The notes under the pieces: generated by a model
Told to the model about the DNA's origin: nothing
Databases searched by the model: none
Seen by the model: only the letters and a program-made list of their open reading frames with translations
From: a virus
Taxonomy: Duplodnaviria; Heunggongvirae; Uroviricota; Caudoviricetes
Strand: one strand, 5' to 3'
Length of the DNA stretch: 21,125 bases
IMG/VR virus record: IMGVR_UViG_2526164601_000021
Location: 1-21,125 of that record
Shown: positions 3,042 through 19,581 of the stretch, piece after piece
Numbering within the stretch: position 1 is the stretch's first letter
Layout: every line of letters starts with the position of its first letter
Made by a program: the position numbers and the translations under genes

Positions 3042-3380
3042 ATGAAACAGGCAACCAGAAAACCGACGACCGTAGGTGATATCCTGCTGTACGAATACCT
3101 GGAGCCGTTAGAGCTGAAGATCAACGAGTTGGCAGAAATACTTCATGTTCATCGTAACACCGTAAGTGCTCTTGTTAATAATAATCGTAAGCTAACGATG
3201 GATATGGCATATCGCCTGGCAAAAGCATTCGATACTTCTGTAGATTTTTGGATTAATCTTCAGACCGCAGTAGACCTGTGGGAAGTCGAAAATGATATGC
3301 GCGTTCAGGAAGAGTTAAGTCGTATCAATACTGCTGAAAAATTTATTTCTCAGCGGAACCTGAATAAAAAAGCAGCCTGA
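3042..3380 (+). CDS. higA: Type II antitoxin, HigA family (XRE-type HTH)
   Basis: 112 aa; TVGDILLYEYLEPLELKINELAEILHVHRNTVSALVNNNRKLTMDMAYRLAKAF..FWINLQ matches the HigA/VapI HTH pattern; downstream of higB. Confidence 0.85.
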   Translation: MKQATRKPTTVGDILLYEYLEPLELKINELAEILHVHRNTVSALVNNNRKLTMDMAYRLAKAFDTSVDFWINLQTAVDLWEVENDMRVQEELSRINTAEKFISQRNLNKKAA

Positions 3381-3436: not shown

Positions 3437-3796
3437 ATGAACATTAAACCTATCCGTACAGAACAAGATTATGAGGCCGCACTGCGTGCGGTCGAACCGA
3501 TGTTCGATAATGAACCGGAAATGAACACACCGGAAGGCGATTTCTTTGAGGTTATGTGTCTTCTCATTGAGGAGTACGAGAAAAAACATTACCCAATTGA
3601 GCCACCATCACCTATTGAGGCCATTAAATTCCGTATGGAACAGCAAGGACTGACCGTGAAGGATCTGGAACCGGCAATTGGTAAGTCAAACCGTGTTTAC
3701 GAAGTGCTTAATGGGACACGAAATTTGACGTTACCTATGATTCGTCGTTTACATGCCCAGTTTGGTATTCCACTGGAAAGTCTGATTGGTGTTTAA
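3437..3796 (+). CDS. HTH (XRE-like) DNA-binding protein with N-terminal extension; antitoxin-like regulator lacking an obvious partner toxin
   Basis: 119 aa; C-terminal GKSNRVYEVLNGTRNLTLPMIRRLHAQFGIPLESLI is HTH-like; architecture resembles HigA-like antitoxins of other TA families. Weak RBS. Confidence 0.55.
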   Translation: MNIKPIRTEQDYEAALRAVEPMFDNEPEMNTPEGDFFEVMCLLIEEYEKKHYPIEPPSPIEAIKFRMEQQGLTVKDLEPAIGKSNRVYEVLNGTRNLTLPMIRRLHAQFGIPLESLIGV

Positions 3797-4440: not shown

Positions 4441-4638
4441 ATTTAACATATGATAACATTCTCAGTTTAAGCGAATTATATAAGAATGGAGGGTTCAAAA
4501 TTGAAAATCAGCAGGATTTATATAAATTCCTTTCTGCAGTAAAGGAATCATCATTCAATAACATAAATTTTGATAAATTATTCTCTGAAATTTCCCGCTT
4601 GCATTCTGAAATGCAAACTGATTTATCAGAAAAATGAA

Positions 4639-4672: not shown

Positions 4673-5866
4673 TTATGCTTTTTTTACATACTCCATGAAC
4701 ATTTTTTTAGCTTGTGCTGGTGGTGTTCCAGCCATGACAAGCGCATCAATGAACGCCTGCTTCTTCAGTGCGAACTGATCGGCCAGGCGTTGCTGAAGCT
4801 CCTTGTTTTTCTGTTTCTCACGTTGCAACGCCGCTTCTTTTGCTGCCGCCCGTTTTTTCTGTGCGTCTGACAACTTTCTGGCCTTGGTCAGTTGGTCACG
4901 TAGCTTGTCAATCTTGCCGTTGTCCTTTGCCAGTTTTGTGCTTAAAGCGGCCTGGCGCTTCTGATAGAGCCTCCATTCTCGCTTGGCAGCGTCAACGTTC
5001 GTTTTACTGCTACGATTGCGATTAAACTCCTTCTCGTCTTCTTTTGAGAAGTGTTTGGTTGTACGGCGGCGATCGTCACCAAATGCAATTTGCGTTGCAG
5101 CCTTTTGTAGCGCACGAGCAATACTCATTTGCCAACTGGCGGACTGTAACCGCGTCATTGAGTGGATCACGTGTTTACAGGCGACGCCTTGCAGCTTCGG
5201 GTTGCGAACTTTTGGATAGGCGTATTCTTTTGGCGGTGCCAGGGCAAAGTTACCCGCAGTGGCGATGTAACGATACCAGTATTGATGACGACCACAGTCA
5301 CAATCGAAAGACACTCGCCCGGCGCACAGTGATTTAGTGATTTTGAGAGCTGATTTATCGTCTTCTGCGATGTCATCAACCATCTGATCCCATTCTTCAA
5401 AGCGTATCCGGACGATATGGTGCTGGTGGACGGATATATCCGATGCTTCTACGCGGATATTAATCACATTGTGGCGAAGAGATACGGGTGTAGCTCTTTT
5501 GATACCAGACCCGTCATCCACGGCGTTATTTGCACGCTTAATATCGATAGCCTGGCTGGATGCCACCAGCTGGGCGTATGTGATGCCAGCCGTCTTGCTG
5601 TCATATTTTTCGCGCGTTTTACTCCGTAGCTTTTCGAAGCCTTTCAGATCGTCTCGCGTAAAGAACGTGCCGCCTTTTTTCTTCCCTAACTTGAGAATAT
5701 CTTCGGCGGATTTGTTCCTAAGTCTGCCTGGCGTCAGCGTCCGGTGAGCTTGTCGGCGCTTACGGGTTTGTTCTTTCCTGATAAGGTCGAATAAACGCGT
5801 GAAGTCCTTAGAGGACAGACCGTCAGTGATATAGCGCCCGTCCTGGTTTTTCAGGAAATCAGGCAT
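4673..5866 (-). CDS. Hypothetical protein (397 aa) with a CxC...CxH (SWIM-like) cysteine motif and a basic Lys/Arg/Ala/Gln-rich coiled-coil C-terminus
   Basis: ORF track; motif FDCDCGRH...VACKHV; GGAGA RBS upstream; start overlaps the stop of an upstream small ORF. No family recognised. Confidence 0.55.
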   Translation of the reverse strand: MPDFLKNQDGRYITDGLSSKDFTRLFDLIRKEQTRKRRQAHRTLTPGRLRNKSAEDILKLGKKKGGTFFTRDDLKGFEKLRSKTREKYDSKTAGITYAQLVASSQAIDIKRANNAVDDGSGIKRATPVSLRHNVINIRVEASDISVHQHHIVRIRFEEWDQMVDDIAEDDKSALKITKSLCAGRVSFDCDCGRHQYWYRYIATAGNFALAPPKEYAYPKVRNPKLQGVACKHVIHSMTRLQSASWQMSIARALQKAATQIAFGDDRRRTTKHFSKEDEKEFNRNRSSKTNVDAAKREWRLYQKRQAALSTKLAKDNGKIDKLRDQLTKARKLSDAQKKRAAAKEAALQREKQKNKELQQRLADQFALKKQAFIDALVMAGTPPAQAKKMFMEYVKKA

Positions 5867-7221: not shown

Positions 7222-7531
7222 TGCTTTGGCGTTATGACTCCCTACCGCGCTTCGGCTGAAAGTTAATCGTCAAAAGAACCTTCAACGGGAGCCGTTAGCG
7301 CGATGGATTATGTGCATTTTGTGATTTCCAAAATAGTGTCAACCACTTTTTGTGGTATTTTATTTTGACCGAAATTTGGCCTAAATCATGTTGATTTGGC
7401 TGATTATTTTTATAACATAAAAGTCATTTTGATTGCATGAAGGTCTGTGCAGTGAAGTTAAGGGTTTTAGGGACCGCGCTCGCGGCTAAGATGGTAAAGT
7501 ATGGAGTTAATGAAATGTTTTTTATAAAAAA

Positions 7532-8336
7532 ATGGAAAAAGAAGTTCCTCAACAATACTTGCTACTGTTGTTGCTCTCTCTGTTCCCACATTTGCCTTTG
7601 CTTATGATTTTAGCAAAATTGACTGCAATGCCCCTAAAACCAGACAGATGTTAATCGATGATTATAATGAACTGCTGAAGGACGATCAGGAAGCAATCTC
7701 TGTAATTGATGCTTATAATCAGATCAATGAGATAAGAGAAAAAATAAGCTCCAATGCCTGGGAACGTATGAATTCTCAGATGGAAGTGCGCTTAGGGTTA
7801 GATATAAGTTATATTTAAATAGCCTCGGCACACCCATATATGAATTTTCTCCAGTTGAGGAATTAACGCAAGATGACGTAAGCGCATCTATCCAAAATAT
7901 CCCTGCAACCACAGCGAGTAAGGCTGGAGGGAATGAAGAAACGTACTCCTGTAAAGTGGCTGTAACCTACAATGGAAAGCGCTCTAACTATATGGGGGAT
8001 ACCGGAGTCTGGGATCGTGTGATTACTGACTATGGCACTTATTTCTCCTGGGATTTGCCGCGCGGAAATCGAGGCAATAGTACAGGCCAGGATGCTTTTA
8101 GTGGCATGGACGAATTAAAGCCAGCATTAGAAAATAAGCTGGTGAGAAAGGAAGTCGAAAAAGATGGTAGCGTGGTTGATGAATTTAGGACTGATGTAAG
8201 TTATGGGGAAAAGCAACCAGTTCATAAGTTTGTATATGCTCGTAGAATAAAACCTACAGGCATGAGAGAGTATTATGTTACGGATTTAACAGACAGGCGG
8301 GCGTTTATGTTTCTGAATTGTCAGAGAGATTCGTGA
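7532..8336 (+). CDS. Putative secreted protein (signal-peptide-like N-terminus), reading frame interrupted twice at homopolymer runs (about 7536-7540 and 7814-7819); possible pseudogene or sequencing artefact
   Basis: Manual three-frame translation: ATG near 7532, signal-like KKRSSSTILATVVALSVPTFA in the adjacent frame, third frame continues to the stop at 8336 (track ORF 7956..8336 is its 3' part). AT-rich. Confidence 0.35.
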
Positions 8337-8344
8337 TTGACATA

Positions 8345-8371
8345 GCAGGCTTACTATTAAGCCTGCTTTTT
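8345..8371 (+). terminator. Rho-independent terminator after the secreted-protein gene
   Basis: Stem GCAGGCTT / AAGCCTGC with 6 nt loop followed by TTTTT. Confidence 0.6.
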
Positions 8372-8375
8372 GGCT

Positions 8376-8735
8376 TTACTCGGTAATAGTTTTGCAGTTG
8401 TTTTGATTTAATGACAATCCTAGCTTGCTAGCAGCCAACTCATTTTCTGTGTGAGAACCAGCAAAAATGAAGCCTTGTTTTATCTTATTTACGGTGAAAT
8501 ATTTATTATACATGAACGCCCAGATAAATGAGGCAATCCACGGGCCAATTCCGGCTGTGAGGAATGCCAGTATCAGCATCACTACAAATACCCCAATAAA
8601 AGTTATAAAGTCTTTCCTGAACAAAGCTGGAAAAGCACCAAACAAGAATGTAGTCCAGGAAAAACCATAAAAACCGGTGATTGATTCGCCAGTTTGAGGG
8701 TTTTCAAGTTTAATTTTAGTAGCCACGATTATCAT
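8376..8735 (-). CDS. Small inner-membrane protein (119 aa, two predicted TM helices)
   Basis: ORF track; hydrophobic segments WTTFLFGAFPALF and ITFIGVFVVMLILAFLTAGIGPWIASFIWAFMY; AT-rich; convergent with the secreted-protein gene. Confidence 0.5.
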   Translation of the reverse strand: MIIVATKIKLENPQTGESITGFYGFSWTTFLFGAFPALFRKDFITFIGVFVVMLILAFLTAGIGPWIASFIWAFMYNKYFTVNKIKQGFIFAGSHTENELAASKLGLSLNQNNCKTITE

Positions 8736-8871
8736 CCTTTTACATAAAAAACATATAGTTATAGTGCTGTGTGAGATTCTAATGTTACTAATTTACACTT
8801 TGTAATGCAATTAAATAACTTTAGGCAGTGGAAGTAACTATTCGTGGCAGACTATCGTTAAGACCTTTCAA

Positions 8872-9156
8872 TTATGGTTGCTGTAAGTGGAGGGGAACAG
8901 CCTGTTCTATCATCTCGCGTATCAAGCCAACTTCAAGTAGTTCCTCGGATTCCCAGTATCTGTTTGTCACCAGATCCAGGCTGGCTATGACCTTGTGCCG
9001 GTCATTCGGCATAGCCAATTTTTCTGCTATAACCATCAGTGAAAACTCTTCATCCAGTAGAATTTGATAGCAGTTTTTTGATAGTTCCACTTCCCTTATG
9101 AGACTGAAACGTCGCTGGATTGTGGCAGCAGAGTAAGTGAAATCTATTTTCTTCAT
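8872..9156 (-). CDS. Hypothetical protein (94 aa)
   Basis: ORF track; no motif recognised; downstream of the Rha operon. Confidence 0.45.
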   Translation of the reverse strand: MKKIDFTYSAATIQRRFSLIREVELSKNCYQILLDEEFSLMVIAEKLAMPNDRHKVIASLDLVTNRYWESEELLEVGLIREMIEQAVPLHLQQP

Positions 9157-9519: not shown

Positions 9520-10158
9520 TTAAAGGCTTTCCGGAAGGGGGGCCAGGGCCACAATGGAGCGTCGCGCAAGCAAACCATCTGGAGTTAAAAACTCATGCGT
9601 ATCGGTGGGAATCCGGAAAGCGTTGACCAGGTTGCGACATTTGGCTTCAGTCAGGCCACATTTCGCCGCCAGCTGGCGGTAGCCAATGTAGCCTTCCGGA
9701 ATATTGCCTTTCTTGATTTGCTCGACGGTTTCAGCGACTTCGGACACTTGTGCCGATACTTCGGCTACCTGGGCATTAACGGCGTTGATCCGGCGTTCAT
9801 GCTCAAGATGCATTTGCGCCATTTCAGCCAGGATTTCGGCTTTTGATTTTAACTGTACCCGGGCATTCTCCAGTTCGCGCCAGCGGTCCACCAGCCGGGC
9901 GGTAAATTCGGGAGAAAGCTGTGCGACGACAATGATACTGTCACGCTTGCCTTGTTCGCCTTCAAAGATGTAAGCCTTGGAAAATCGACGAGGGCCAACT
10001 GATTGTTTATTTTCAATTTCCTCAATTTGAGGAAATTGAATGACACCACCTTTAGTTAATACTTCAATGGTACGCTTCACATTATCATGACGCTTACCTA
10101 CCAGTTCCGCGATCTCAATACTGGTCATTGTCGCTTTTTGAGAGATGGACAGATTCAT
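9520..10158 (-). CDS. Phage regulatory protein, Rha family (antirepressor-like)
   Basis: 212 aa; N-terminal TSIEIAELVGKRHDNVKRTIEVLTKGGVIQFPQIEE matches the Rha-domain pattern; coiled-coil middle region; start overlaps the stop of the upstream ORF. Confidence 0.75.
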   Translation of the reverse strand: MNLSISQKATMTSIEIAELVGKRHDNVKRTIEVLTKGGVIQFPQIEEIENKQSVGPRRFSKAYIFEGEQGKRDSIIVVAQLSPEFTARLVDRWRELENARVQLKSKAEILAEMAQMHLEHERRINAVNAQVAEVSAQVSEVAETVEQIKKGNIPEGYIGYRQLAAKCGLTEAKCRNLVNAFRIPTDTHEFLTPDGLLARRSIVALAPLPESL

Positions 10159-10373
10159 CAGTGCACCTCCACGCAGTTCATCGGCAGATTCCAGTAATTG
10201 AGGATCTCCATCGCATCAAGAGTGAAGCGAGCAGCAAAAATGCAGGGTTCTTCGGGAAGGTATGAGCGCGCTTCTGCTTCGGTAGCAGCCATGACGCAGA
10301 TATAGAGGTGTTTTTGGCAGGAATAGAAACGCCAGATAAATTCAGAATGAGTTGGGGTAGGGGTAGTAGCCAT
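10158..10373 (-). CDS. Small protein, possibly Icd-like (host cell division inhibitor family)
   Basis: 71 aa; AATEAEARSYLPEEPCIFAARF resembles the Icd-like pattern from memory; strong RBS (AAGGAGG); translationally coupled to the Rha gene. Confidence 0.4.
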   Translation of the reverse strand: MATTPTPTHSEFIWRFYSCQKHLYICVMAATEAEARSYLPEEPCIFAARFTLDAMEILNYWNLPMNCVEVH

Positions 10374-10380
10374 AATGGCA

Positions 10381-10556
10381 GCCTCCTTTTGCTAATTTAA
10401 GGAGCTACCGCGTGAGGTTCCAATCTCAATGGCGGTAGCACTGACTGGGTTGGAACTACCGGCGCAAAAGGGAACCGGCCTGCCTTTCGGCAGCCCAGCC
10501 AGCACTACCATTGATCTCTGAGCTAAACGCTACGTATGGCTGTGCGATGGCATGAC
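10381..10556 (-). ncRNA. Highly structured, repeat-rich leader upstream of the Icd-like/Rha operon; candidate C4/CI-type antisense-RNA immunity region
   Basis: Multiple mutually complementary boxes on the transcribed strand (CGGTAG x2 vs CTACCG; GTTCCAA vs TTGGAAC; CTGCC-tttc-GGCAG hairpin), allowing alternative pairings. Confidence 0.3.
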
Positions 10557-10558
10557 AC

Positions 10559-10581
10559 AAAAAAAGACGCTTTCGGCGTCT
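10559..10581 (-). terminator. Rho-independent terminator (minus strand) ending the upstream leftward transcript
   Basis: Stem AGACGC / GCGTCT with 5 nt loop followed on the minus strand by T7. Confidence 0.6.
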
Positions 10582-10685
10582 GTGTCGCCTTTTGCATTAT
10601 CCGGGGTTCCAATCCCGGCACCCGTTTTTCTAAGGTGCCGTAGAAATATACCCCACGATAATGCCAGGGCGCAACAGTCAGTATT

Positions 10686-10937: not shown

Positions 10938-11182
10938 AGTGTAGTGACTCCTTGCTTTCGGAGCCGCCATCGACTGTTCCACGGTCTGGTGGCGGCGCAA
11001 TAAAGGCTGGAACACCGTGAGTCAACGGGGGCTTTTCAGCCACCTATATTGCACCGCCATAGGTATGGCGGCGGCAATAATACGAAAAACTAAACAGTTT
11101 GTCTCAAAAAGTTGACCGGTGTACCAATCGGTAGTGAATGTACATCGGGGAAATTCACAATTCAACTTAAAATGTTAGAAAA

Positions 11183-11761
11183 CTAATTTATCAATTCAAT
11201 CGCCATCTGATACAACGCCATTTCATCGGCATTGTGCCGTATGAAATCTGCTTTTCCGCCTATTTTTCCATCAGCATGAACAGGGACCAGCCAGGGATAT
11301 TGTTCTCGGACCTCGGCTGGCGCTGCGTACTGGTGGTGCCATTTACACAAAGGGAGGACATATTTATGTGCGTTCTCTGCCGTTCTCCCGAAGATATGGT
11401 GCAGGGATACCACTGGGCTATGTTTCCCGTGAATATGGCAGGCAATGCAGGGGAGAGTACCGATAGCGGTCTGTATCCGGCGTTCATCGGCTGTGAGTGA
11501 TCTGCCCTTCAGGCCGCGTGACGTGCGTGTTTTTTTGGACGGAGCGGATACAGCTTTCTCTTTTCTCCGCTGGTCATATTGCTTTGCTTTTTCAATTTTT
11601 TTTTGCCGATATTCAGGCGATGCGGCTTTTTCTCTCGCTCGCTGCTGCTGGCGTTGAGCTTGTTGAAGGCGCTTTGCCCTTTGTTCCTCTCGCCAGGCCG
11701 GGTCAGCCAATTTTTGCATGGCTTTTTGTCTCTGTTTCTCCCAATAGCTCTGTTTCTGCAT
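11183..11761 (-). CDS. HNH-type nuclease, Ref-like (recombination enhancement function family): basic low-complexity N-terminus plus C-terminal Cys/His motif
   Basis: 192 aa; N-terminal K/R/Q-rich region; C-terminal CIACHIHGKHSPVVSLHHIFGRTAENAHKYVLPLCKWHH resembles an HNH zinc-binding core. Confidence 0.55.
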   Translation of the reverse strand: MQKQSYWEKQRQKAMQKLADPAWREEQRAKRLQQAQRQQQRAREKAASPEYRQKKIEKAKQYDQRRKEKAVSAPSKKTRTSRGLKGRSLTADERRIQTAIGTLPCIACHIHGKHSPVVSLHHIFGRTAENAHKYVLPLCKWHHQYAAPAEVREQYPWLVPVHADGKIGGKADFIRHNADEMALYQMAIELIN

Positions 11762-11810
11762 GATGGCAGCCTCTTACTTTTCAGCGATTTTTCTATGATT
11801 GATCAAAATG

Positions 11811-11838
11811 GTTAGATATTCAAAATTGATTTTCTAAC
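11811..11838. promoter_or_regulatory. Inverted repeat GTTAGA-N16-TCTAAC in the promoter region of the rightward operon; candidate operator
   Basis: Perfect 6 bp inverted repeat about 40 nt upstream of the first rightward ORF; a near-identical element occurs at 16373..16400. Confidence 0.4.
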
Positions 11839-11878
11839 ACAAAACATTAATATCATTCCTGATAACTGTTTGGAGGAC

Positions 11879-12034
11879 ATGATGCTTATAGCTTTAAGTG
11901 CGATCCACCAGCCATCTGTGAATGAGATTGGCCTGTTCTATGTGTTGTTTTTCGGGGCGTTGGCGCTACTTGAACTTGGTATTGAGCTTTTCGCAGTGCT
12001 TATGTTTTGCGTCACGATTTTGGGGAAATTTTGA
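11879..12034 (+). CDS. Small hydrophobic ORF (about 50 aa) at the head of the rightward operon
   Basis: GGAGG 5 nt upstream of the ATG; MMLIALSAIHQPSVNEIGLFYVLFFGALALLELGIELFAVLMFCVTILGKF; stop overlaps the start of the next gene (TGATG). Confidence 0.35.
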   Translation: MMLIALSAIHQPSVNEIGLFYVLFFGALALLELGIELFAVLMFCVTILGKF

Positions 12035-12393
12035 TGGTGAAACGTGTTTTGAAAATTTACATCGCGGGGCCGATGACTGGTTATCCAGATTACAACCGTG
12101 CGGCGTTTAATGCGAAAGCGATCGAGCTGATGGCTGAAGGGCATATCGTTCTGAATCCAGCGGTGTTACCTGGTGGCCTTTGCCAGAGTGAATACATGGA
12201 TATTTGCCTGGCAATGGTGCGTTCTGCTGATGCGATCTATTTGCTCAATCGATGGGAAGAATCGGTTGGTGCTCGTGCAGAGCACGCGCTGGCTGAAAAG
12301 CTGGGGCTGACTGTAATTTATGAGTCACCAACCAACATTGAATGCCAGGTTGCTCCACATATTTTACCGGGAACTGGTCAATGCACTGCGTGA
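12034..12393 (+). CDS. DUF4406 family protein (nucleoside 2-deoxyribosyltransferase-like fold)
   Basis: Track ORF 12007..12393 trimmed to the ATG; KIYIAGPMTGYPDYNRAAFNAKAIELMAEGHIVLNP..WEESVGARAEHALAEKLGL matches the DUF4406 pattern. Confidence 0.75.
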   Translation: MVKRVLKIYIAGPMTGYPDYNRAAFNAKAIELMAEGHIVLNPAVLPGGLCQSEYMDICLAMVRSADAIYLLNRWEESVGARAEHALAEKLGLTVIYESPTNIECQVAPHILPGTGQCTA

Positions 12394-12647
12394 CTATCGC
12401 TGCTGTATATCACGGCACAGAACAGCTTCGTGAGCGTTTAGCCCATACCATTTCCTATTACCTTTCTTTATCTCATGAGCACAAGCTCCGCCAGAAGGTA
12501 ATGATCAAATTTATCATGAGGTTATCGAAATCCCTGGCAAACGCCGATCCAAAGAATCCATTACCGAAAGAGGCAATGAATTACCTGAAGTCCTGCAACG
12601 TTGTTTCTGAAGATGGCGTTCTTTTGGTTAGAAGGAGTTCTGCGTGA
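12381..12647 (+). CDS. Hypothetical protein (about 88 aa)
   Basis: Track ORF 12342..12647; likely start ATG 12381 or GTG 12390 overlapping the preceding stop (GTGA). Confidence 0.4.
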   Translation: MHCVTIAAVYHGTEQLRERLAHTISYYLSLSHEHKLRQKVMIKFIMRLSKSLANADPKNPLPKEAMNYLKSCNVVSEDGVLLVRRSSA

Positions 12648-12961
12648 GCTGGCGGGGATGGGGAAGGGCAGAAATCATGATACTCCGCCAGTGCGCCGGA
12701 ACTATGACGGTCGAGAGTATTGGGAAGCTGATCGGTCGTACCGGTGATGCCGTCAGGACTAAAGCGCGGGAGTTGGGGATCAGCATGATTCTGAAAGGAG
12801 ACTTTCATCCGTCAGACAAATACCGGCAGAGCGATATAGAACTGGCACGGCAGCTTCATCAGTGTGGTGTTCCCCGCCGTGAGATCGCGGAAAAACTCGA
12901 AATGCCCCTGGGCATGATTAATCAGTACGTTTATTTCGAAAGGAGAGTGTATGAAGTCTGA
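12644..12961 (+). CDS. Small DNA-binding protein with two HTH-like segments
   Basis: ORF track (GTG start overlapping the previous stop); segments SIGKLIGRTGDAVRTKARELGIS and DIELARQLHQCGVPRREIAEKLEMPLGMINQYV look like sigma-70 region-4 / LuxR-type HTH. Confidence 0.5.
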   Translation: MSWRGWGRAEIMILRQCAGTMTVESIGKLIGRTGDAVRTKARELGISMILKGDFHPSDKYRQSDIELARQLHQCGVPRREIAEKLEMPLGMINQYVYFERRVYEV

Positions 12962-13135
12962 AGGTTTAACGACCCGCACAACTGGCAGAGCGTAACGCTG
13001 AGTATGTACGGAAATTTCCCGACTTGAGAAAGCGTGTGCTGCGCTAGCGGCGGAGAATGCTGGGCTGAAACATGCAATGGCTGTAACTCTGAGCATGTGT
13101 CGGTCACGGATGCAGGGCAGGCCGGAGTTGCCGCA

Positions 13136-13438
13136 ATGATTATCAACGATGCCCTGCACCACAGCGAAACTCCAGCCACCGATGCTTTTCTGGCTGAAAT
13201 TCGTGCGGCGGCTCGCAACAGGGGGATTAACTATACCGCAAGCCGTCTTGCTGCTGCGTTCAATCACGGATTTATCAATAAGTCTTTGCGTGAAGTTTTC
13301 GACGTTACACGCATGATTTTGTCAGCGAAAGAAGAGTTGGCTAATGAAGCGCATCCGATTGATGGCCTGTCTGGTGAATATGCGGAGAAATCCCTTGAAG
13401 AATGGGCGGAACAGATTCGCAAAGGAGCTGGCAAGTGA
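13136..13438 (+). CDS. Hypothetical protein, paralog A of the 14236..14607 product (shared TPATDAFLAE core)
   Basis: Track ORF 13034..13438 trimmed to ATG 13136, whose start overlaps the stop of a short upstream frame; clear similarity to the downstream paralog. Confidence 0.45.
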   Translation: MIINDALHHSETPATDAFLAEIRAAARNRGINYTASRLAAAFNHGFINKSLREVFDVTRMILSAKEELANEAHPIDGLSGEYAEKSLEEWAEQIRKGAGK

Positions 13439-13845
13439 AGAGGATGATTTTTGTGGCGGCATTGCTGACCATTACCCAACAGGCGCAGGCTTCAGCAGTT
13501 ATTGTGGCATCTACCGCCGCGACCACGGCTGCTGTAGCTGCTGCGAACTCTGCGAATATCGCAAACCAACAGTCACAGCGTGCTGCCAATGCATCAGCCA
13601 GTGTTCACCCAATCGCCATTAAGACCGGCAAGAAAAATATAGGTTTCATAACATGCGGCAAACGTTCTGACGAGGCTGTAGATTCACTTGGATGTACGGT
13701 ATATGGGGATAGTGAGAGTAGAGAAATTCCATGGAAAACGTGGCCCGGATATGTTCTCGGCTCGAAGCTCCCTGCCAGCTATGAAGTAAACGCCGTATCG
13801 TTTGATCACTATAACGGCGTGGCAACGGTCTATTTTGCATATTGA
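13435..13845 (+). CDS. Putative secreted protein with N-terminal signal peptide and Ala/Thr-rich linker
   Basis: Track ORF 13402..13845; likely start GTG 13435 or ATG 13444; MIFVAALLTITQQAQA signal-like sequence. Confidence 0.45.
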   Translation: MKRMIFVAALLTITQQAQASAVIVASTAATTAAVAAANSANIANQQSQRAANASASVHPIAIKTGKKNIGFITCGKRSDEAVDSLGCTVYGDSESREIPWKTWPGYVLGSKLPASYEVNAVSFDHYNGVATVYFAY

Positions 13846-13853
13846 GGCTCCGC

Positions 13854-14252
13854 ATGAAATTCTCCAAATTTTCTGAGTTGGTGAATCGTATTTTGTCCAA
13901 CAACCACAGCCATCGTCGCGATATGGATGTAACGATCGTTGTTCATTCGCCTGGCAGCATTGGTTCAACACCCTCAGTTGAGGTTCAGTCAATTCACGCT
14001 GGTTTTGATTGGGATTCCGGGAAAGTGCTGATTTTCCCAGCACAGCCACTGACTACGCTAACACCAGAACAGATTACTGATATTACTGATAGTGTGCGCA
14101 AAGGTCAGTCCTGGCACGCATATCAGGAATACAAGAAGCATAAAGAGCAGTTGGAAAAATTATCGATTGAACTTGATACCGCAAAACAGCGCATTGCAGA
14201 GCTGGAGGGTAATCGCGCGGCGCTGGCGGCGGAGAATGCGGGGACTGAATAA
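13854..14252 (+). CDS. Ea22-like coiled-coil protein (possible)
   Basis: Track ORF 13842..14252 trimmed to ATG 13854 (GAGG upstream); C-terminal LEKLSIELDTAKQRIAELEGNRAALAAENAG coiled coil resembling the 19015..19581 product. Confidence 0.4.
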   Translation: MKFSKFSELVNRILSNNHSHRRDMDVTIVVHSPGSIGSTPSVEVQSIHAGFDWDSGKVLIFPAQPLTTLTPEQITDITDSVRKGQSWHAYQEYKKHKEQLEKLSIELDTAKQRIAELEGNRAALAAENAGTE

Positions 14253-14607
14253 ATTCATCGCACAGAGTTGCTACGTGTTTGATGGCGAGCAGGATGAAAT
14301 ATCTGATGCGTATATCTGCGCAACAGATGGAGGGATGCCGCAAACACCAGCCACCGATGCTTTCCTGGCTGAAGTGAAGACTGAAGCACGCAAGGAGGGC
14401 GCTTACTTTGTGGCGAACAGAATGCTGGCTGCCTGGGAAGCTGGTTTTATTGATGATACTGCGAAGAACGCCGCGGATATTGCCCGGATGATTCTTACCT
14501 CTACTGAGTTTATGGCTAATGCGCCGGAAGGCGATTTTGACCGCTCATTCTCTGATGGCGTTCTCGAAGATATCGCCGCCCAGCTTGGAAAAGGAGGCAA
14601 ACAGTGA
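14236..14607 (+). CDS. Hypothetical protein, paralog B of the 13136..13438 product
   Basis: Internal ATG of track ORF 14092..14607, overlapping the preceding stop by 17 nt; PQTPATDAFLAEVKTEARKEG..ARMILTSTEF parallels paralog A. Confidence 0.45.
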   Translation: MRGLNKFIAQSCYVFDGEQDEISDAYICATDGGMPQTPATDAFLAEVKTEARKEGAYFVANRMLAAWEAGFIDDTAKNAADIARMILTSTEFMANAPEGDFDRSFSDGVLEDIAAQLGKGGKQ

Positions 14608-14852
14608 GTAATTCCGCACGACTACAGCTTGGTTTTTCACCGCTATCAAAAACCATCGTGTTGGCAAAAATGCGTGACTTAGGGGATGGAACAAAACGTC
14701 GTGTCGGCAATGATCGCGGTCGTGATGTAACCAACGAGGCCGCACAACTCGTTTGGCATCTAGTCATGGCTGAAGGCGGTGAAATTAATTGGGAGCTGGA
14801 TGATGGTTCTCGCATGGTATTGAAGGCAGAAAAGCAGGAGCCACCACAGTGA
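14604..14852 (+). CDS. Hypothetical protein (82 aa)
   Basis: ORF track; GTG start overlapping the previous stop (GTGA). Confidence 0.4.
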   Translation: MSNSARLQLGFSPLSKTIVLAKMRDLGDGTKRRVGNDRGRDVTNEAAQLVWHLVMAEGGEINWELDDGSRMVLKAEKQEPPQ

Positions 14853-15011
14853 ATATCGACACCACGATAACAATCGATACGGCCCTAAATACCGGTCTGG
14901 CACTTTTCGGTTGGCTTTACATCATGTCCCGTACCTGGCGATGGCTGGGTTCCATTTTTCCTAAAAAGAGTGGAAAAAACGGCGCAAACAGGAACTACGC
15001 CAGAAGGCATT
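14849..15011 (+). CDS. Possible small membrane ORF (about 52 aa, GTG start); adjacent frame stays open into the next gene across an A-run
   Basis: Manual translation: MNIDTTITIDTALNTGLALFGWLYIMSRTWRWLGSIFPKK..; GTGA overlap with the previous stop; below the ORF-track size cut-off. Confidence 0.25.
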
Positions 15012-15123
15012 AGAAGCGTTCTATGACGCATTTGAGCTTAGCCGCATTGAACCAGGCACAACAGCCAGAATAGCGACAAAAGGCGAACCTGATGATAGTG
15101 ATGTTCAGACAGGAGAAAACCAA

Positions 15124-15348
15124 ATGACAGAACAGACGATGACAAATCGCGAACTTGTTGATGCCGCGATTGAACTTGCTGGCGATTTTTATTCCATGAT
15201 GGGTTACGAGCATCGACCTGGTTTTAAGTATTGGGAGTCACCGCATCCGCAAGAACAACAGGTGTTTGAAATGGCCTGCCGTGCTTTTGAGGTTATTCGC
15301 GGTTCTGATGTGATGGAGGCCGTTGCCGACTTGGAGGATGAAGAGTGA
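15124..15348 (+). CDS. Hypothetical acidic protein (74 aa)
   Basis: ORF track; AGGAG RBS about 9 nt upstream. Confidence 0.45.
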   Translation: MTEQTMTNRELVDAAIELAGDFYSMMGYEHRPGFKYWESPHPQEQQVFEMACRAFEVIRGSDVMEAVADLEDEE

Positions 15349-15656
15349 GCATCATTAAAGAAATGCCGGTAGAACGTGATGAATATGGCTGCTGGACACA
15401 TCCGGAGTATGAGAAGTTTTGCGCAGGTCGTGAATATATTTCCACTGAGGAATTTGACGCCTGGATGAAGGAAAATAATCTTCAGTGGACTATTCGCAGT
15501 ATGGATGAAGATGATTTTGATCTGGACGCAGCTGGTCCCGATATTGCCGCCTGGGAACCGGAGCGACCAGAGGGTGAAGGCTGGTTTGTTGGCTCTATTC
15601 ATGACACTGAAGATGGTCCGGTTTGTATCTGGCTGCGTGAGAAGGTTGCCGCATGA
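15345..15656 (+). CDS. Hypothetical protein (103 aa)
   Basis: ORF track; start overlaps the previous stop, and its stop overlaps the next start. Confidence 0.45.
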
Positions 15657-16345
15657 CCCAGGCTCTGCATGAAGTGAATTTATATAGCCGTATTGATGGT
15701 TCTGGCTATAGAAACATATGGGTTGTTGGTGATCTGCATGGTTGCTACACCAGACTGATGTCCGAACTCCATCGTGTGGATTTTGACCCGGCGCAGGATT
15801 TACTGATATCGGTTGGCGACCTTATCGATCGCGGTACTGAAAATGTCGAATGTCTGGAACTATTGCAGATGCCCTGGTTCAGGGCAGTAATGGGGAACCA
15901 TGAGCGGTTGATGCTTGATGCGTTAAGTCCTGATGGCAACGTGAATAACTGGCTAATGAATGGCGGACAATGGTTCTTCATGCTGGACACTGATCAGGAA
16001 ATATTAGCCAAGGCGCTGGTGGAGCTGGTAAAGCGTCTGCCATATATCATTGAGTTGAACGCCGGGCATGAAACTATCGTTATAGCCCATGCCGACTATC
16101 CAGGTGGAGAGTACCAGTTCGGTAAGGATGTGTCGCTTTTTGATGTTGTCTGGTCGCGCAGTCGCGTCGGTGATTCGATAGATGGCATTGGTGGAGAAAT
16201 CACAGGCGCAGATCGCTTTATCTTTGGGCACACACCGGTACGAAGACCAAAAGCATACTGGAATCAGCACTACATAGACACGGGCGCGGTTTTTTGCGGA
16301 AATCTGACGCTAATGCAGGTGAAGGGAGGGCAGCTTAAAGTCTGA
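15653..16345 (+). CDS. Ser/Thr protein phosphatase, lambda phosphatase type (calcineurin-like metallophosphoesterase)
   Basis: 230 aa; GDLHGC, GDLIDRG and GNHE motifs, and close resemblance along its length to bacteriophage lambda phosphatase as recalled. Confidence 0.9.
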
Positions 16346-16372
16346 TCAAATCATTTACGCACTCAAAATCAC

Positions 16373-16400
16373 GTTAGAACATTGATTTTAGTTTTCTAAC
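16373..16400. promoter_or_regulatory. Inverted repeat GTTAGAA-N14-TTCTAAC upstream of the DUF968 gene; second copy of the candidate operator
   Basis: 7 bp perfect inverted repeat sharing the ATTGATTTT spacer core with the 11811..11838 site; about 44 nt upstream of the ATG at 16444. Confidence 0.4.
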
Positions 16401-16443
16401 ATATTATTTTACCGATCGGAACAAAACAGAGTCGGTATGCATT

Positions 16444-17439
16444 ATGAGTGCAATAATCACCCCATATGTCGTAAATGAAACTGGTGTGGCTGTCTTTCCT
16501 GTAGATAAGCCCACCAGCAATTACATCGGCGCAGGACGCCGTTTTCTTATATCCCCATTGCCGCGTGAACAGGCTGAAAACACCCCTGATGGTGTCGTTG
16601 ACCTGAATTATTCACTGGTTGCCAACCAGTCACTGGCACCCTTTTTTCAAAGTGAGCGTGTATTTAACGCGTTAGGTGGTGAGGATTCTCTCGTTCACTG
16701 GGTTAGCACCAACATTCACGATTGCCAGGCGCATGATAAGCGCGATTGCAGCCACCAGCTAACCACCCATTTCTATAACGGTTCTGCCGTTCGCCTGTGC
16801 TGGAAGCATGATGCGGAATACATGATGAAGGGATACGGCAAGCTGGAAGACCAACTGTCACGGAATCGCGCCAACTGGATTATGAACTGGGCTGCCAGCG
16901 AGTTAAAACTTCCGCCGGATCGCGATCTGAGCATGGTTGAACTCACCTTTTGGGCCATTCGCCGGAATCTTAAAGACGAACTGCCTGATGAAGCTGGTCG
17001 CATTGCATTTTGTCAGCCAAAAACTGAAATCCCTACCGGTACGCTGAAAGAATCAGATATCACCTGGGAGCACAGTACCCGCGAGCTGGTGGACATAACC
17101 GCAGAGCAGATCGTCAACCTGTCTGTAGATGAGGATTCCGGCCTGCTTTATATGCGCCGACCAAAAGCGGTCCTCGGTAAAAGCCCGGCTTATCTCCGGT
17201 TTGTGGTTTCTCGTCCGTGCATCGGATGCGGTGGCAAAGTTAACCACCCGTTCATGTACCGCGCCCGCTCGTTAAACGAACACGACCGCTGGGCTGTTCC
17301 TCTTTGCGATGACTGCGCCAGAAGCGCAGAAAACGATGTTCGGGCATGGGAAAAAGCACATGGCATACGCCTTTACGTAGCCGCTAACCAGCTTTTTGAC
17401 TTCGCCATCGAGCGCGGAGTGATCACGTTCAATAACTGA
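16444..17439 (+). CDS. DUF968 family phage protein (YdfU-like) with Cys/His-rich HNH-like motifs
   Basis: 331 aa; general resemblance to YdfU-type prophage proteins; C-terminal CIGCGG..HP....EHDRWAVPLCDDCA cluster. Confidence 0.6.
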   Translation: MSAIITPYVVNETGVAVFPVDKPTSNYIGAGRRFLISPLPREQAENTPDGVVDLNYSLVANQSLAPFFQSERVFNALGGEDSLVHWVSTNIHDCQAHDKRDCSHQLTTHFYNGSAVRLCWKHDAEYMMKGYGKLEDQLSRNRANWIMNWAASELKLPPDRDLSMVELTFWAIRRNLKDELPDEAGRIAFCQPKTEIPTGTLKESDITWEHSTRELVDITAEQIVNLSVDEDSGLLYMRRPKAVLGKSPAYLRFVVSRPCIGCGGKVNHPFMYRARSLNEHDRWAVPLCDDCARSAENDVRAWEKAHGIRLYVAANQLFDFAIERGVITFNN

Positions 17440-17455
17440 TGAGGTGGATCAAAAA

Positions 17456-18136
17456 ATGAAAGAACGCGGGATGATTTTTAACGATGAGATGGTCAGGGCC
17501 ATCCTCGAAGGAAGGAAGACGCAGACTCGCCGACCTGTAAAAAATGTCAGGGCCGATAACTGCCTAGTTATCCGTAAACCGACAAAGAAACGCAATGGTG
17601 TCTATACCCACGTTATGGATGCACCTGAACATGGTTTATGCCCGTTCGGTAACGTTGGTGATCGCATATGGGTCCGTGAGGCGTGGGCGATATTAGGCAA
17701 TGAGGATGGTTGCAGTGTGGACTGGAACGACAACCTTTGTCGTGGCGATGAGAAGAACGCAGCAAGGATTTATCGGGCCAGTTGTGAGCAAAAGCCTGGT
17801 GATTACGGTTTGTGGTCGATACCCGATGATGTCGACTGGAAACCTCACACTGTGAATGAAAAGTTTGATGGCGGGTGGCGTCCATCAATTCACATGCCGC
17901 GCTGGGCTTCGCGTATTTTGCTGGAAATTACCGACGTGCGTGTGGAACGGCTGCGTGATATGAGCGAGGCAGATGCTAAAGCAGAAGGCGCATCTCCGGC
18001 GATGTACAAAATTACGCCGCCGGAAGCTGTTTATCGCGTTGGTTTTGGTGATATCTGGCGCAGTATTTACGGGCAGGATAACTGGCTATCTAACCCGTGG
18101 GTATGGGTAATCGAGTTTAAGCGCGTTCAGGAATAA
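17456..18136 (+). CDS. ASCH-like domain protein (PUA-fold)
   Basis: Track ORF 17444..18136 (GTG); likely ATG at 17456; N-terminal MIFNDEMVRAILEGRKTQTRR matches the ASCH signature as in E. coli YqfB. Confidence 0.5.
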   Translation: MKERGMIFNDEMVRAILEGRKTQTRRPVKNVRADNCLVIRKPTKKRNGVYTHVMDAPEHGLCPFGNVGDRIWVREAWAILGNEDGCSVDWNDNLCRGDEKNAARIYRASCEQKPGDYGLWSIPDDVDWKPHTVNEKFDGGWRPSIHMPRWASRILLEITDVRVERLRDMSEADAKAEGASPAMYKITPPEAVYRVGFGDIWRSIYGQDNWLSNPWVWVIEFKRVQE

Positions 18137-18139
18137 ACC

Positions 18140-19018
18140 GTGAGTATGCATCAAGTTGTCAGCTTTTCAGGTGGACGAACATCGGCTTATCTCGTTCATC
18201 TGATGGAAGCACAGCGAAAAGCTGGCGCTAGCGTCCATTTCATTTTTATGGATACCGGCTGTGAACATCCTCTGACGTATCGCTTTATTCGTGAGGTTGT
18301 GAAGTTCTGGAACGTACCGCTAACGGTGTTGCAGGTCGATATAAATCCAGAACTTGGGCAGCCAAATGGTTATACGGAATGGGAACCAAAGGATATTCAG
18401 ACGCGAATGCCGGTGCTTAAACCGTTTATGGACATGGTTAAAAAGTACGGTACGCCTTACATCGGCGGCGCGTTCTGTACTGACAGGCTAAAACTCACCC
18501 CTTTCACGAAATATTGCGATGACCATTTTGGGCGAGGGAATTACATCACATGGCTGGGTATTCGTGCGGACGAACACCGTAGGCTGAAACCGAAACCGGG
18601 CGTCCGGTATCTTGCAGAACTGTCAGATTTTGATAAGTCGGATGTTATTCGGTGGTGGCGAAAACAACCTTTTGATTTGCAAATCCCGGAGCACCTCGGG
18701 AACTGTGTTTTTTGCATCAAAAAGTCAACGCAAAAGCTGGGGCTTGCATGTAAAGACGAACCTGGTCTGATGCGGGTTTTTAATGAACTGGTTACAGGCA
18801 AACACGTCAGGGATGGTCATCGCAGAACAGGTAAAGACGTTATGTACCGTGGTCACCTGACGCTTGACGGGATTGCCAGAATGTATGCCGACAGCGACTA
18901 CAGAAATTTGTATCAGGCGATGGTGCAGGCCAAGCGGTTTGATACTGGTTCGTGTTCCGAATCATGTGAAATCTGGGGTGACCAATTGGAGTTGAAATTC
19001 GAAGAGGTAGTGGTATGA
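18140..19018 (+). CDS. PAPS reductase-like / PP-loop ATP pyrophosphatase family protein
   Basis: 292 aa; N-terminal SFSGGRTSAYL PP-loop motif and overall resemblance to phage PAPS-reductase-family proteins. Confidence 0.65.
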   Translation: MSMHQVVSFSGGRTSAYLVHLMEAQRKAGASVHFIFMDTGCEHPLTYRFIREVVKFWNVPLTVLQVDINPELGQPNGYTEWEPKDIQTRMPVLKPFMDMVKKYGTPYIGGAFCTDRLKLTPFTKYCDDHFGRGNYITWLGIRADEHRRLKPKPGVRYLAELSDFDKSDVIRWWRKQPFDLQIPEHLGNCVFCIKKSTQKLGLACKDEPGLMRVFNELVTGKHVRDGHRRTGKDVMYRGHLTLDGIARMYADSDYRNLYQAMVQAKRFDTGSCSESCEIWGDQLELKFEEVVV

Positions 19019-19581
19019 CAAACAAAATTGACTATCAAAAACTTCGTGAAATCGCTGAAAAAACAAAAATTGCTGGTGAAGCACCTGTAATGCCTTTCGA
19101 TCAGCGAATTAATGCGCTTAACGATTTTATGAAGCACTTTTCGCCAGATATCGCGCTGGCATTGTTGGATGAACGGGAAAGAAACCAGCAATACATCAAA
19201 CGCCGCGACCAGGAGAACGAGGAAATTGCGCTAACGGTAGGGAAGCTGCGTGTTGAGCTGGAAGCCGCAGAGAAGCGCATTGCAGAACTGGAAGCACGGG
19301 AAATAAAACCAGCCAAAGGCGAAGTTCTTGTCGTTGTTTCTGGTTTTACTGGTTGCGGAAAAAGCGCCATCGCCGGGGAAATAGAAATTGCGATGAAAGC
19401 TATTGGTGTGCCGGTTCAATGGACTAATGGCGATGCAGAAAAGCATATGACCGGCGCTGACTGGCTGACAGCGATTGAGATGTACAAACCAACTGTGCGC
19501 ATCGTGGAAGTTAATGTGCCACGCGTCGCTGGCATTTGCATCAAAGGAGACGCAGGAGAGCAAAACGATGAAAAACCGTAA
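19015..19581 (+). CDS. Ea22-like coiled-coil protein
   Basis: 188 aa; ATGA overlap with the previous stop; central repeats LRVELEAAEKRIAELEARE; similar to lambdoid Ea22 family as recalled. Confidence 0.5.
   Translation: MTNKIDYQKLREIAEKTKIAGEAPVMPFDQRINALNDFMKHFSPDIALALLDERERNQQYIKRRDQENEEIALTVGKLRVELEAAEKRIAELEAREIKPAKGEVLVVVSGFTGCGKSAIAGEIEIAMKAIGVPVQWTNGDAEKHMTGADWLTAIEMYKPTVRIVEVNVPRVAGICIKGDAGEQNDEKP

Follow-up and report, generated by a model that had tools for sequence, protein, structure and literature searches.

Two inverted repeats in the 21,125-nt stretch of viral DNA analysed here (the window) are likely to be bivalent operators for the C1-type master repressor of a D6-like prophage, which belongs to the P1 family of plasmid prophages. 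Together with further copies of the same element in phage D6, they most likely represent the operator set of D6-type immunity, that is, a known P1-like switch whose sequence is unlike that of the well-studied P1 one. This is the regulatory logic expected of a temperate phage-plasmid and not a new kind of regulation. The sites are linked to C1 by correlation and by analogy with P1, and it is on these grounds that we infer C1 to be the protein that binds them.

Genomic setting and the sites in the window

The window comes from a D6-like plasmid prophage of the phage P1 family. It is 95.7% identical to Escherichia phage D6 over the region of the repeats, and phage P1 itself is a more distant relative. 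Gene names follow the D6 annotation, to which the window was compared. The gene c1 is not part of the window; it is present in D6 and in the closest plasmid relatives of the window, whose C1 is identical to D6 C1. Judging from these near-identical relatives, this very replicon presumably carries c1 as well. The genes and RNAs that surround the sites are listed below.

11183-11761, minus strand: ref, Ref-like RecA-dependent endonuclease, proposed leftward target of operator 1
11882-16345, plus strand: rightward operon from the orf88-like gene to ppp, with proposed control from operator 1
11882-12034, plus strand: orf88-like gene, 50 codons, first gene of the rightward operon
12034-12393, plus strand: DUF4406 gene, inside the rightward operon
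12644-12961, plus strand: ORF inside the rightward operon
15653-16345, plus strand: ppp, phosphatase gene, last gene of the rightward operon
16444-19581, plus strand: gene block downstream of candidate operator 2
16444-17439, plus strand: DUF968/pdcB-like gene, first in the block behind candidate operator 2
17444-18136, 18140-19018 and 19015-19581, plus strand: further genes behind candidate operator 2
9520-10638, minus strand: immI-type antirepressor module, downstream of the candidate monovalent operator 11165-11190
10560-10638, minus strand: isrK-like RNA (Rfam, 62.5 bits)
10428-10515, minus strand: C4 antisense RNA (Rfam, 76.7 bits)
10158-10373, minus strand: icd, in the immI-type module
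9520-10158, minus strand: ant (Rha-like), in the immI-type module

D6-like elements have two immI-type modules, and the window carries the second of these. Its candidate operator lies ~650 nt upstream of C4, compared with ~200 nt in P1. The DUF4406 gene looks split in the window. D6 orf89 is a single 612-nt gene, and its counterpart here consists of the listed DUF4406 gene and an overlapping ORF in another frame (12342-12647), whose match is to the C-terminal portion of a phage family of 220 residues. The split (12034-12647) reflects a frameshift, a pseudogene or an error in sequencing.

The first-pass annotation had described a similar inverted repeat in each of two intergenic regions, and both were found where it had placed them. 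GTTAGA-N16-TCTAAC matches exactly at 11811-11838 (site 1, GTTAGA-tattcaaaattgattt-TCTAAC) and at 16373-16400 (site 2, GTTAGAA-cattgattttagtt-TTCTAAC), with a geometry common to both sites of 6+16+6 = 28 bp. These are the only two exact matches in the window, and none was found in 100 dinucleotide-preserving shuffles of it. The repeats end 41-44 nt before ATG 11879/11882 and ATG 16444, in agreement with the distance first estimated. For the second site the location was right but the string had lost one T, the true string being GTTAGAA-CATTGATTTTAGTT-TTCTAAC with a 14-nt spacer between the 7-mers. A shared 9-mer, ATTGATTTT, is present at both sites (11825-11833 and 16381-16389) but is out of register with the repeat: at site 1 it adjoins the right arm, at site 2 the left. 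ATTGATTTT/ATTGATTT can stand beside opposite arms at the two sites because this AT-rich segment is self-complementary. The segment includes TTGATT, a reasonable -35 hexamer. We rejected the reading of ATTGATTTT as merely a shared -35, since the 9-mer doubles as the AT-rich, self-complementary 5' portion of the half-site (AAATTRATTT).

The half-site noted near 11174 proved to be strong when scored with a D6 weight matrix (described below) that was built without that site. The site overlaps ref at its 3' end, faces the module of isrK-like RNA, C4 RNA, icd and ant, and is matched at the same position by D6 (75972-75997) and S. dysenteriae (4558-4583). On the D6 matrix, the four repeat arms score 18.7-33.0. 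Extended to the length of the matrix, the candidate operators are as follows.

11802-11847: candidate bivalent operator 1 (extended), between ref (leftward) and the orf88-like operon (rightward)
11802-11827, minus strand: left half-site of operator 1, score 18.7
11822-11847, plus strand: right half-site of operator 1, score 33.0
16364-16409: candidate bivalent operator 2 (extended), between ppp and the DUF968/pdcB-like gene
16364-16389, minus strand: left half-site of operator 2, score 20.6
16384-16409, plus strand: right half-site of operator 2, score 28.7
11165-11190, minus strand: candidate monovalent operator, score 23.9, core TTCTAAC (plus-strand GTTAGAA at 11174-11180)

A GATC (Dam site) lies just left of site 1 within the palindromic TTGATCAA (11799-11806) and is invariant in four divergent relatives. 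The sequence TGATCAAA at ~16293-16300, upstream of site 2, resembles TTGATCAA. P1 carries Dam sites in the cre and kilA regulatory regions.

Candidate promoters were found at both repeats.

11826-11853, plus strand: candidate rightward sigma-70-like promoter of the orf88-like operon, -35 TTGATT (11826-11831), N16, -10 TAATAT (11848-11853)
11799-11826, plus strand: second rightward candidate at site 1, TTGATC (11799-11804) and CAAAAT (11821-11826)
11795-11823, minus strand: candidate leftward ref promoter, -35 TTGAAT (11823-11818), N17, -10 AATCAT (11800-11795)
16382-16410, plus strand: candidate promoter of the DUF968 block, -35 TTGATT (16382-16387), N17, -10 TATTTT (16405-16410)

The second candidate at site 1 aside, the three candidate promoters each match the consensus at 8 of 12 positions in a relaxed scan, and the TCTAAC core falls within the spacer of every one of them (the right arm for the orf88 operon, the left arm for ref and the right arm at site 2). 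A stricter sigma-70 scan reported no promoter at site 1 or site 2. Both hexamers of the site 2 promoter are invariant in divergent relatives. For the rightward promoter at site 1, the -35 is invariant in these relatives and the -10 is not, and a conserved block of the site 1 alignment, CTATGATTGATC, is in keeping with the candidate ref promoter. We tentatively infer that the sites overlap sigma-70-like promoters, with a divergent pair at site 1 serving ref to the left and the orf88 operon to the right. The original suggestion that a single protein-recognition element is present in two copies, one in each candidate promoter region, is supported.

The recognition unit in phage D6 and its relatives

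The D6 genome contains four GTTAGA-N16-TCTAAC pairs at no more than one mismatch, located between repL and the first icd-ant module, upstream of the hrdC-methylase genes, between ref and orf88, and between ppp and the pdcB-like gene. Aligned outward, the arms read TTTTCTAACACAAAT with an AT-rich AAATTRAT ahead. The half-site also occurs alone in D6: 36 nt upstream of c1, upstream of lpa, and at pmgS/pmgR, gene 23/orf52 and cre/orf117. In these alignments, the repeat arms prove to be the cores of longer asymmetric sites of ~20 bp, about AAATTRATTTTCTAACACAAAT. Since the unit is asymmetric and often stands alone, the repeat is better read as two back-to-back sites than as the palindrome of an obligate dimer, and the 'dimeric' regulator that had been proposed is doubtful.

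A weight matrix of 26 nt was built from 13 D6 half-sites and applied at a threshold score of at least 12. It gave 17 matches in the D6 genome, compared with ~1 in shuffled genomes, and recovered sites that had been left out of training, namely those upstream of repL and at the 3' ends of pmgS and ref. All but one of the 17 matches are non-coding, in a genome of which 10.2% is non-coding (p = 2e-15). In an unbiased k-mer test of D6, no 8-mer was more strongly enriched in intergenic sequence than TTCTAACA, of whose 12 copies 11 are intergenic (p = 7e-11). The genes behind the D6 sites are c1, lpa, repL, both c4-icd-ant modules, ref, hrdC-methylase and pmgR/S, with a further site at cre|orf117. 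Single sites are found at c1, lpa, orf52, orf117 and the second immI module (11165-11190 in the window).

At every pair, the minus- and plus-strand matrix matches start 20 nt apart. The halves of a pair share the first six matrix positions (AAWWTT, self-complementary), and the TCTAAC cores are 22 bp apart, or about two helical turns. This 20-nt register is seen at the four D6 pairs, again at three in Shigella, and at two further positions in contigs with an 80%-identical C1. A strong site (27.7) at the 3' end of pmgS (D6 9065-9090) faces a ~1.2-kb stretch without an annotated gene (7850-9085), and an unannotated small gene or RNA in that stretch may be under repressor control.

D6 is the only carrier of the two intergenic regions among 50,697 phage records; ppp and its neighbours occur in 161 records. 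Each region is found in 119 plasmids, with the same taxon split for both (97 Escherichia, 16 Salmonella and 6 Shigella). The whole window is matched by 1164 plasmids, and ~131 plasmids have a D6-type C1 of at least 60% identity. In 31 viral contigs with a C1 79-100% identical to that of D6, the sites are kept at -36 of c1, cre|orf117, lpa and pmgS/R, the core TTCTAA(C/T)A is invariant, and new inverted pairs appear in the same 20-nt register. A search of one-genome-per-species contigs gave no match to D6-type C1. In Shigella dysenteriae, where C1 is 70% identical, the c1-proximal site is unchanged. No site position has been lost from the complete plasmid NZ_CP026816.1 of this species: the two inverted pairs stand at 5220/5240 and 7113/7133, and the hrdC pair at 76023/76043.

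At greater distance the motif is different. In Leclercia and Pantoea plasmids (C1 ~30% identical), the D6 matrix matches nothing in the 14-15 kb c1 loci. In a complete Leclercia P1-like plasmid, the intergenic 7-mer ranked first by an unbiased test was TTCTAAG, all 12 copies of which are intergenic (p = 4e-11), with copies at ref, two between c1 and cre, and one between cre and the next gene. The motif thus follows the repressor lineage, being constant at 70-100% C1 identity and replaced at ~30%, with the TCTAA core kept. A second enriched word, GTCATACAGT/ACTGTATGAC, was observed in the Leclercia adecarboxylata plasmid pE1_003. The Pantoea plasmid c1 locus contains ATTCTAAA three times, in each case intergenic, with one copy between the integrase gene and the next gene.

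When site 1 was aligned with divergent relatives, an invariant island extended from CTATGATTGATC through the whole palindrome, and both flanks diverged. At both sites, the two arms become the full-consensus TTTCTAACACA in divergent relatives. Divergent plasmids align with the site 2 region only from the left arm (16373) onwards, and the upstream ppp 3' region is unrelated; the plasmids that diverge at this edge are those of S. dysenteriae and E. coli CP091837. Operator, promoter and gene seem to move as one module, and the operators may mark mosaic junctions.

C1 and other candidate regulators

In the older P1 literature, P1 C1 binds DNA as a monomer. According to PMC8546580, C1 has 22 operators scattered over P1, each an asymmetric 17-bp site (ATTGCTCTAATAAATTT), and RepL and Lpa are under its control. 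D6 C1 (345 aa) is annotated as 'prophage repressor similar to P1 C1' and is a distant homologue, with 21% identity to P1 C1 over 240 aa (E = 2e-8). The P1 record annotates the following operators.

Oref: at ref
Oppp and OpmgRa/b: at the ppp operon, and ahead of pmgR (after ppp-pmgQ)
Olpa: at lpa
Oc1a-e: at c1, coi and cre
Oc4: ahead of c4-icd-ant
OrepL: ahead of kilA-repL

The distribution of the D6-type sites mirrors this regulon, the core is shared and the motif co-varies with C1; C1 is therefore favoured over other regulators. That one regulator serves both transcription units, as first suggested, and more besides is very probably correct, since the site set matches the P1-family C1 regulon.

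It is unlikely, though conceivable, that the same early promoters are controlled by a different regulator conserved in all D6-like elements, such as an unrecognised DNA-binding protein or an Lxc/Bof-like partner. The link to C1 consists of co-occurrence, positional analogy and co-variation, which any gene co-inherited with c1 would fit equally, and searches with C1 returned no Pfam domain (HTH included) and no PDB relative, hence no independent structural argument for its specificity. However, the site set corresponds to the P1 C1 regulon gene for gene, down to the site 36 nt upstream of c1, and the TCTAA core is also present in the experimentally defined P1 C1 operator. The motif, moreover, is altered where C1 identity falls to ~30% and unchanged at 70-100%, as described above.

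The first-pass annotation had named the product of ORF 12644-12961 as one candidate, and a role for it as a dimeric autoregulator acting on both palindromes is very improbable. The ORF has a partial match to phrog_323 ('transcriptional regulator, D5-like', E = 7e-28), its homologues are labelled DNA-binding proteins by NCBI, it sits in the operon that site 1 would control, and its count of 121 plasmids is close to that of the sites. On the other hand, its Pfam HTH signal is below threshold, and it is present in only 2 Shigella plasmids, compared with 6 that have the sites and C1. The same motif also stands alone before c1, lpa and repL, which is the regulon of a master repressor and not of a local autoregulator. 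NZ_CP026816.1 has no homologue of it (E <= 0.01), and because it is absent from this Shigella plasmid, which has every site, ORF 12644-12961 was rejected as the regulator. The HTH_3 proteins encoded at 3042-3380 and 3437-3796 were also considered as regulators and set aside; NZ_CP026816.1 has no homologue of either at the same threshold.

It is also very improbable that the repeats work at the RNA level, be it as a leader hairpin or as a weak terminator hairpin behind ppp or ref. They do fold to -6.8 to -8.0 kcal/mol (z-scores -2.1 to -3.8), and site 2 lies directly behind the ppp stop codon with a T-rich stretch after it. However, the stems are AU-rich with 6-8 outer pairs, a terminator scan reported neither repeat, and no Rfam family matched either. 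The same sequence also occurs as a single non-palindromic site at many promoters, and relatives conserve the arm bases, whereas a hairpin would need pairing only. A separate leader hairpin after site 2 (16411-16436) was rejected, as substitutions in relatives, inspected by eye, break its pairs without compensation.

The repeats are most improbable as Lpa-activated late promoters (in P1, Lpa recognises a 9-bp inverted repeat at about -22). P1 late promoters do hold a short inverted repeat just upstream of the -10 hexamer, but the P1 -22 boxes (AAGTGACTT, AAGTTACTT and AAATGACTA) are unrelated to GTTAGA/TCTAAC, the repeats show no resemblance to the P1-type -22 box (AAGTNACTT), the genes behind them are early, immunity or accessory genes with the motif also ahead of lpa and c1, and D6-type late genes have a motif of their own, AAATCACA-NNCT-NNNNAT.

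This late motif was found by the unbiased k-mer test upstream of prt, ddrA, 16, pmgB, 23, 7, mat and orf16 in D6. A scan of D6 for P1-type late boxes (AAGTNACTT) gave no sensible matches. The AAATCACA motif looks like the D6-type counterpart of the P1 Lpa-dependent late promoter (-22 box and -10), and in D6, at 9062 and 54192, such boxes stand immediately next to strong operator sites. Two copies are present in the window.

2561-2568: late motif upstream of gene 7, plus-strand TGTGATTT, reading leftward
7320-7327: late motif upstream of mat, plus-strand TGTGATTT, reading leftward

A weak operator-like site (7400-7425, plus strand, score 10.7), whose core reads TTATAAC in place of TTCTAAC, is found between mat and simB, ~80 nt from the late-promoter box. 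The arrangement recalls the dual control of mat by C1 and Lpa in P1 (Omat/LPmat).

With C1 as the favoured regulator, the arrangement of the sites suggests how repression may work. The repressor would read the asymmetric ~20-bp site AAATTRATTTTCTAACACAAAT. In a pair, two such sites would lie back to back, their AT-rich 5' ends overlapping centrally by 6 bp and their cores 22 bp apart on the same face of the DNA, so that each pair would hold two C1 molecules and repression would occur by promoter occlusion. At site 1, the -35 hexamers would be central and the cores would fall in the spacers, and bound repressor could shut off ref and the orf88-to-ppp operon together. The pair at site 2 would cover the promoter of the DUF968 gene block, and the third, single site (11165-11190) would head the c4-icd-ant module. 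In a lysogen, the early and accessory operons would be silent, and they would be expressed once C1 is inactivated, for example by antirepressor.

E. coli, Salmonella and Shigella commonly harbour D6-like phage-plasmids, and more than 100 complete plasmids carry these sites. Knowledge of the operator sequence would define the lysogeny regulon of these elements. It indicates that their accessory operons (ref, ppp, the DUF968 block, the methylases and the two antirepressor modules) would be silent in the carrier state, and it should make superinfection immunity groups among P1-like elements predictable from operator sequence.

Comparison with known repressor operators

A full-text literature search, outside whose scope the D6 genome paper fell, returned no description of D6-type operators. 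The closest known system is that of the P1/P7 C1 operators. Like the sites described here, these are asymmetric, occur in many copies across the plasmid-prophage (~22 in P1) and come in monovalent and bivalent forms. They too stand ahead of c1, lpa, repL, c4-icd-ant, ref, pmgR and the cre region, and they overlap sigma-70 promoter hexamers, as our sites may also do. In P1 OpmgRa and OpmgT, the 5' part of the operator can supply the TTG of a -35; the corresponding sequence here is TTGATT. The TCTAA core is common to P1 and D6-type operators, and the cognate repressors are homologous.

The differences from P1 lie in sequence, size and pair geometry. Beyond the TCTAA core, the P1/P7 consensus ATTGCTCTAATAAATTT is not matched here. 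By analogy, the sites would work like P1 operators but with a different specificity, outside that of P1/P7 immunity. The recognisable site is ~20-22 bp, compared with 17 bp in P1, and the repressors differ in length (345 aa for D6 C1, 283 aa for P1 C1). P1 Oc1ab is a 28-bp element of two inverted 17-mers; its ATTG ends point outward, its 3' ends share 6 bp, and its cores face inward at a distance of 13 bp. Here, in contrast, the cores are outward and 22 bp apart, the AT-rich 5' ends overlap and the total is ~46 bp. The D6 site can also be aligned to the P1 operator in reverse (11 of 17 positions, by eye), which would give a P1-like pair geometry, 12 bp wider. The direct alignment is tentatively preferred because the TCTAA core recurs in four lineages.

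We tentatively propose, in what remains a speculative generalisation, that the C1 repressors of P1-like phage-plasmids all recognise a common TCTAA core and that its flanks set immunity specificity: CTCTAAT in P1, TTTCTAACA in D6, ATTCTAAGG in Leclercia and possibly ATTCTAAA in Pantoea. In the D6 lineage, the paired arrangement would have been rebuilt, with two repressors back to back two helical turns apart on a 46-bp element that silences two divergent promoters. If this core-plus-flank rule is true, it would provide a sequence rule for mutual immunity and a source of orthogonal repressor/operator pairs.

Two other systems share features with the sites described here. In the lambdoid OR (PRM/PR), as proposed for site 1, one repressor acts in a compact region on two divergent promoters, and heteroimmune lambdoid relatives likewise keep the layout and change the operator sequence. 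However, lambdoid operators are two-fold symmetric, ~17 bp long and bound by HTH dimers, whereas the sites here are asymmetric, often solitary and associated with an unrelated repressor family. P1 Lpa late promoters also have a short repeat near the -10 hexamer that recurs around the genome, but they differ in sequence and in gene set. The D6-type sites thus offer a natural comparison for P1, with a distant C1 homologue, a related core, and a different flank and pair geometry.
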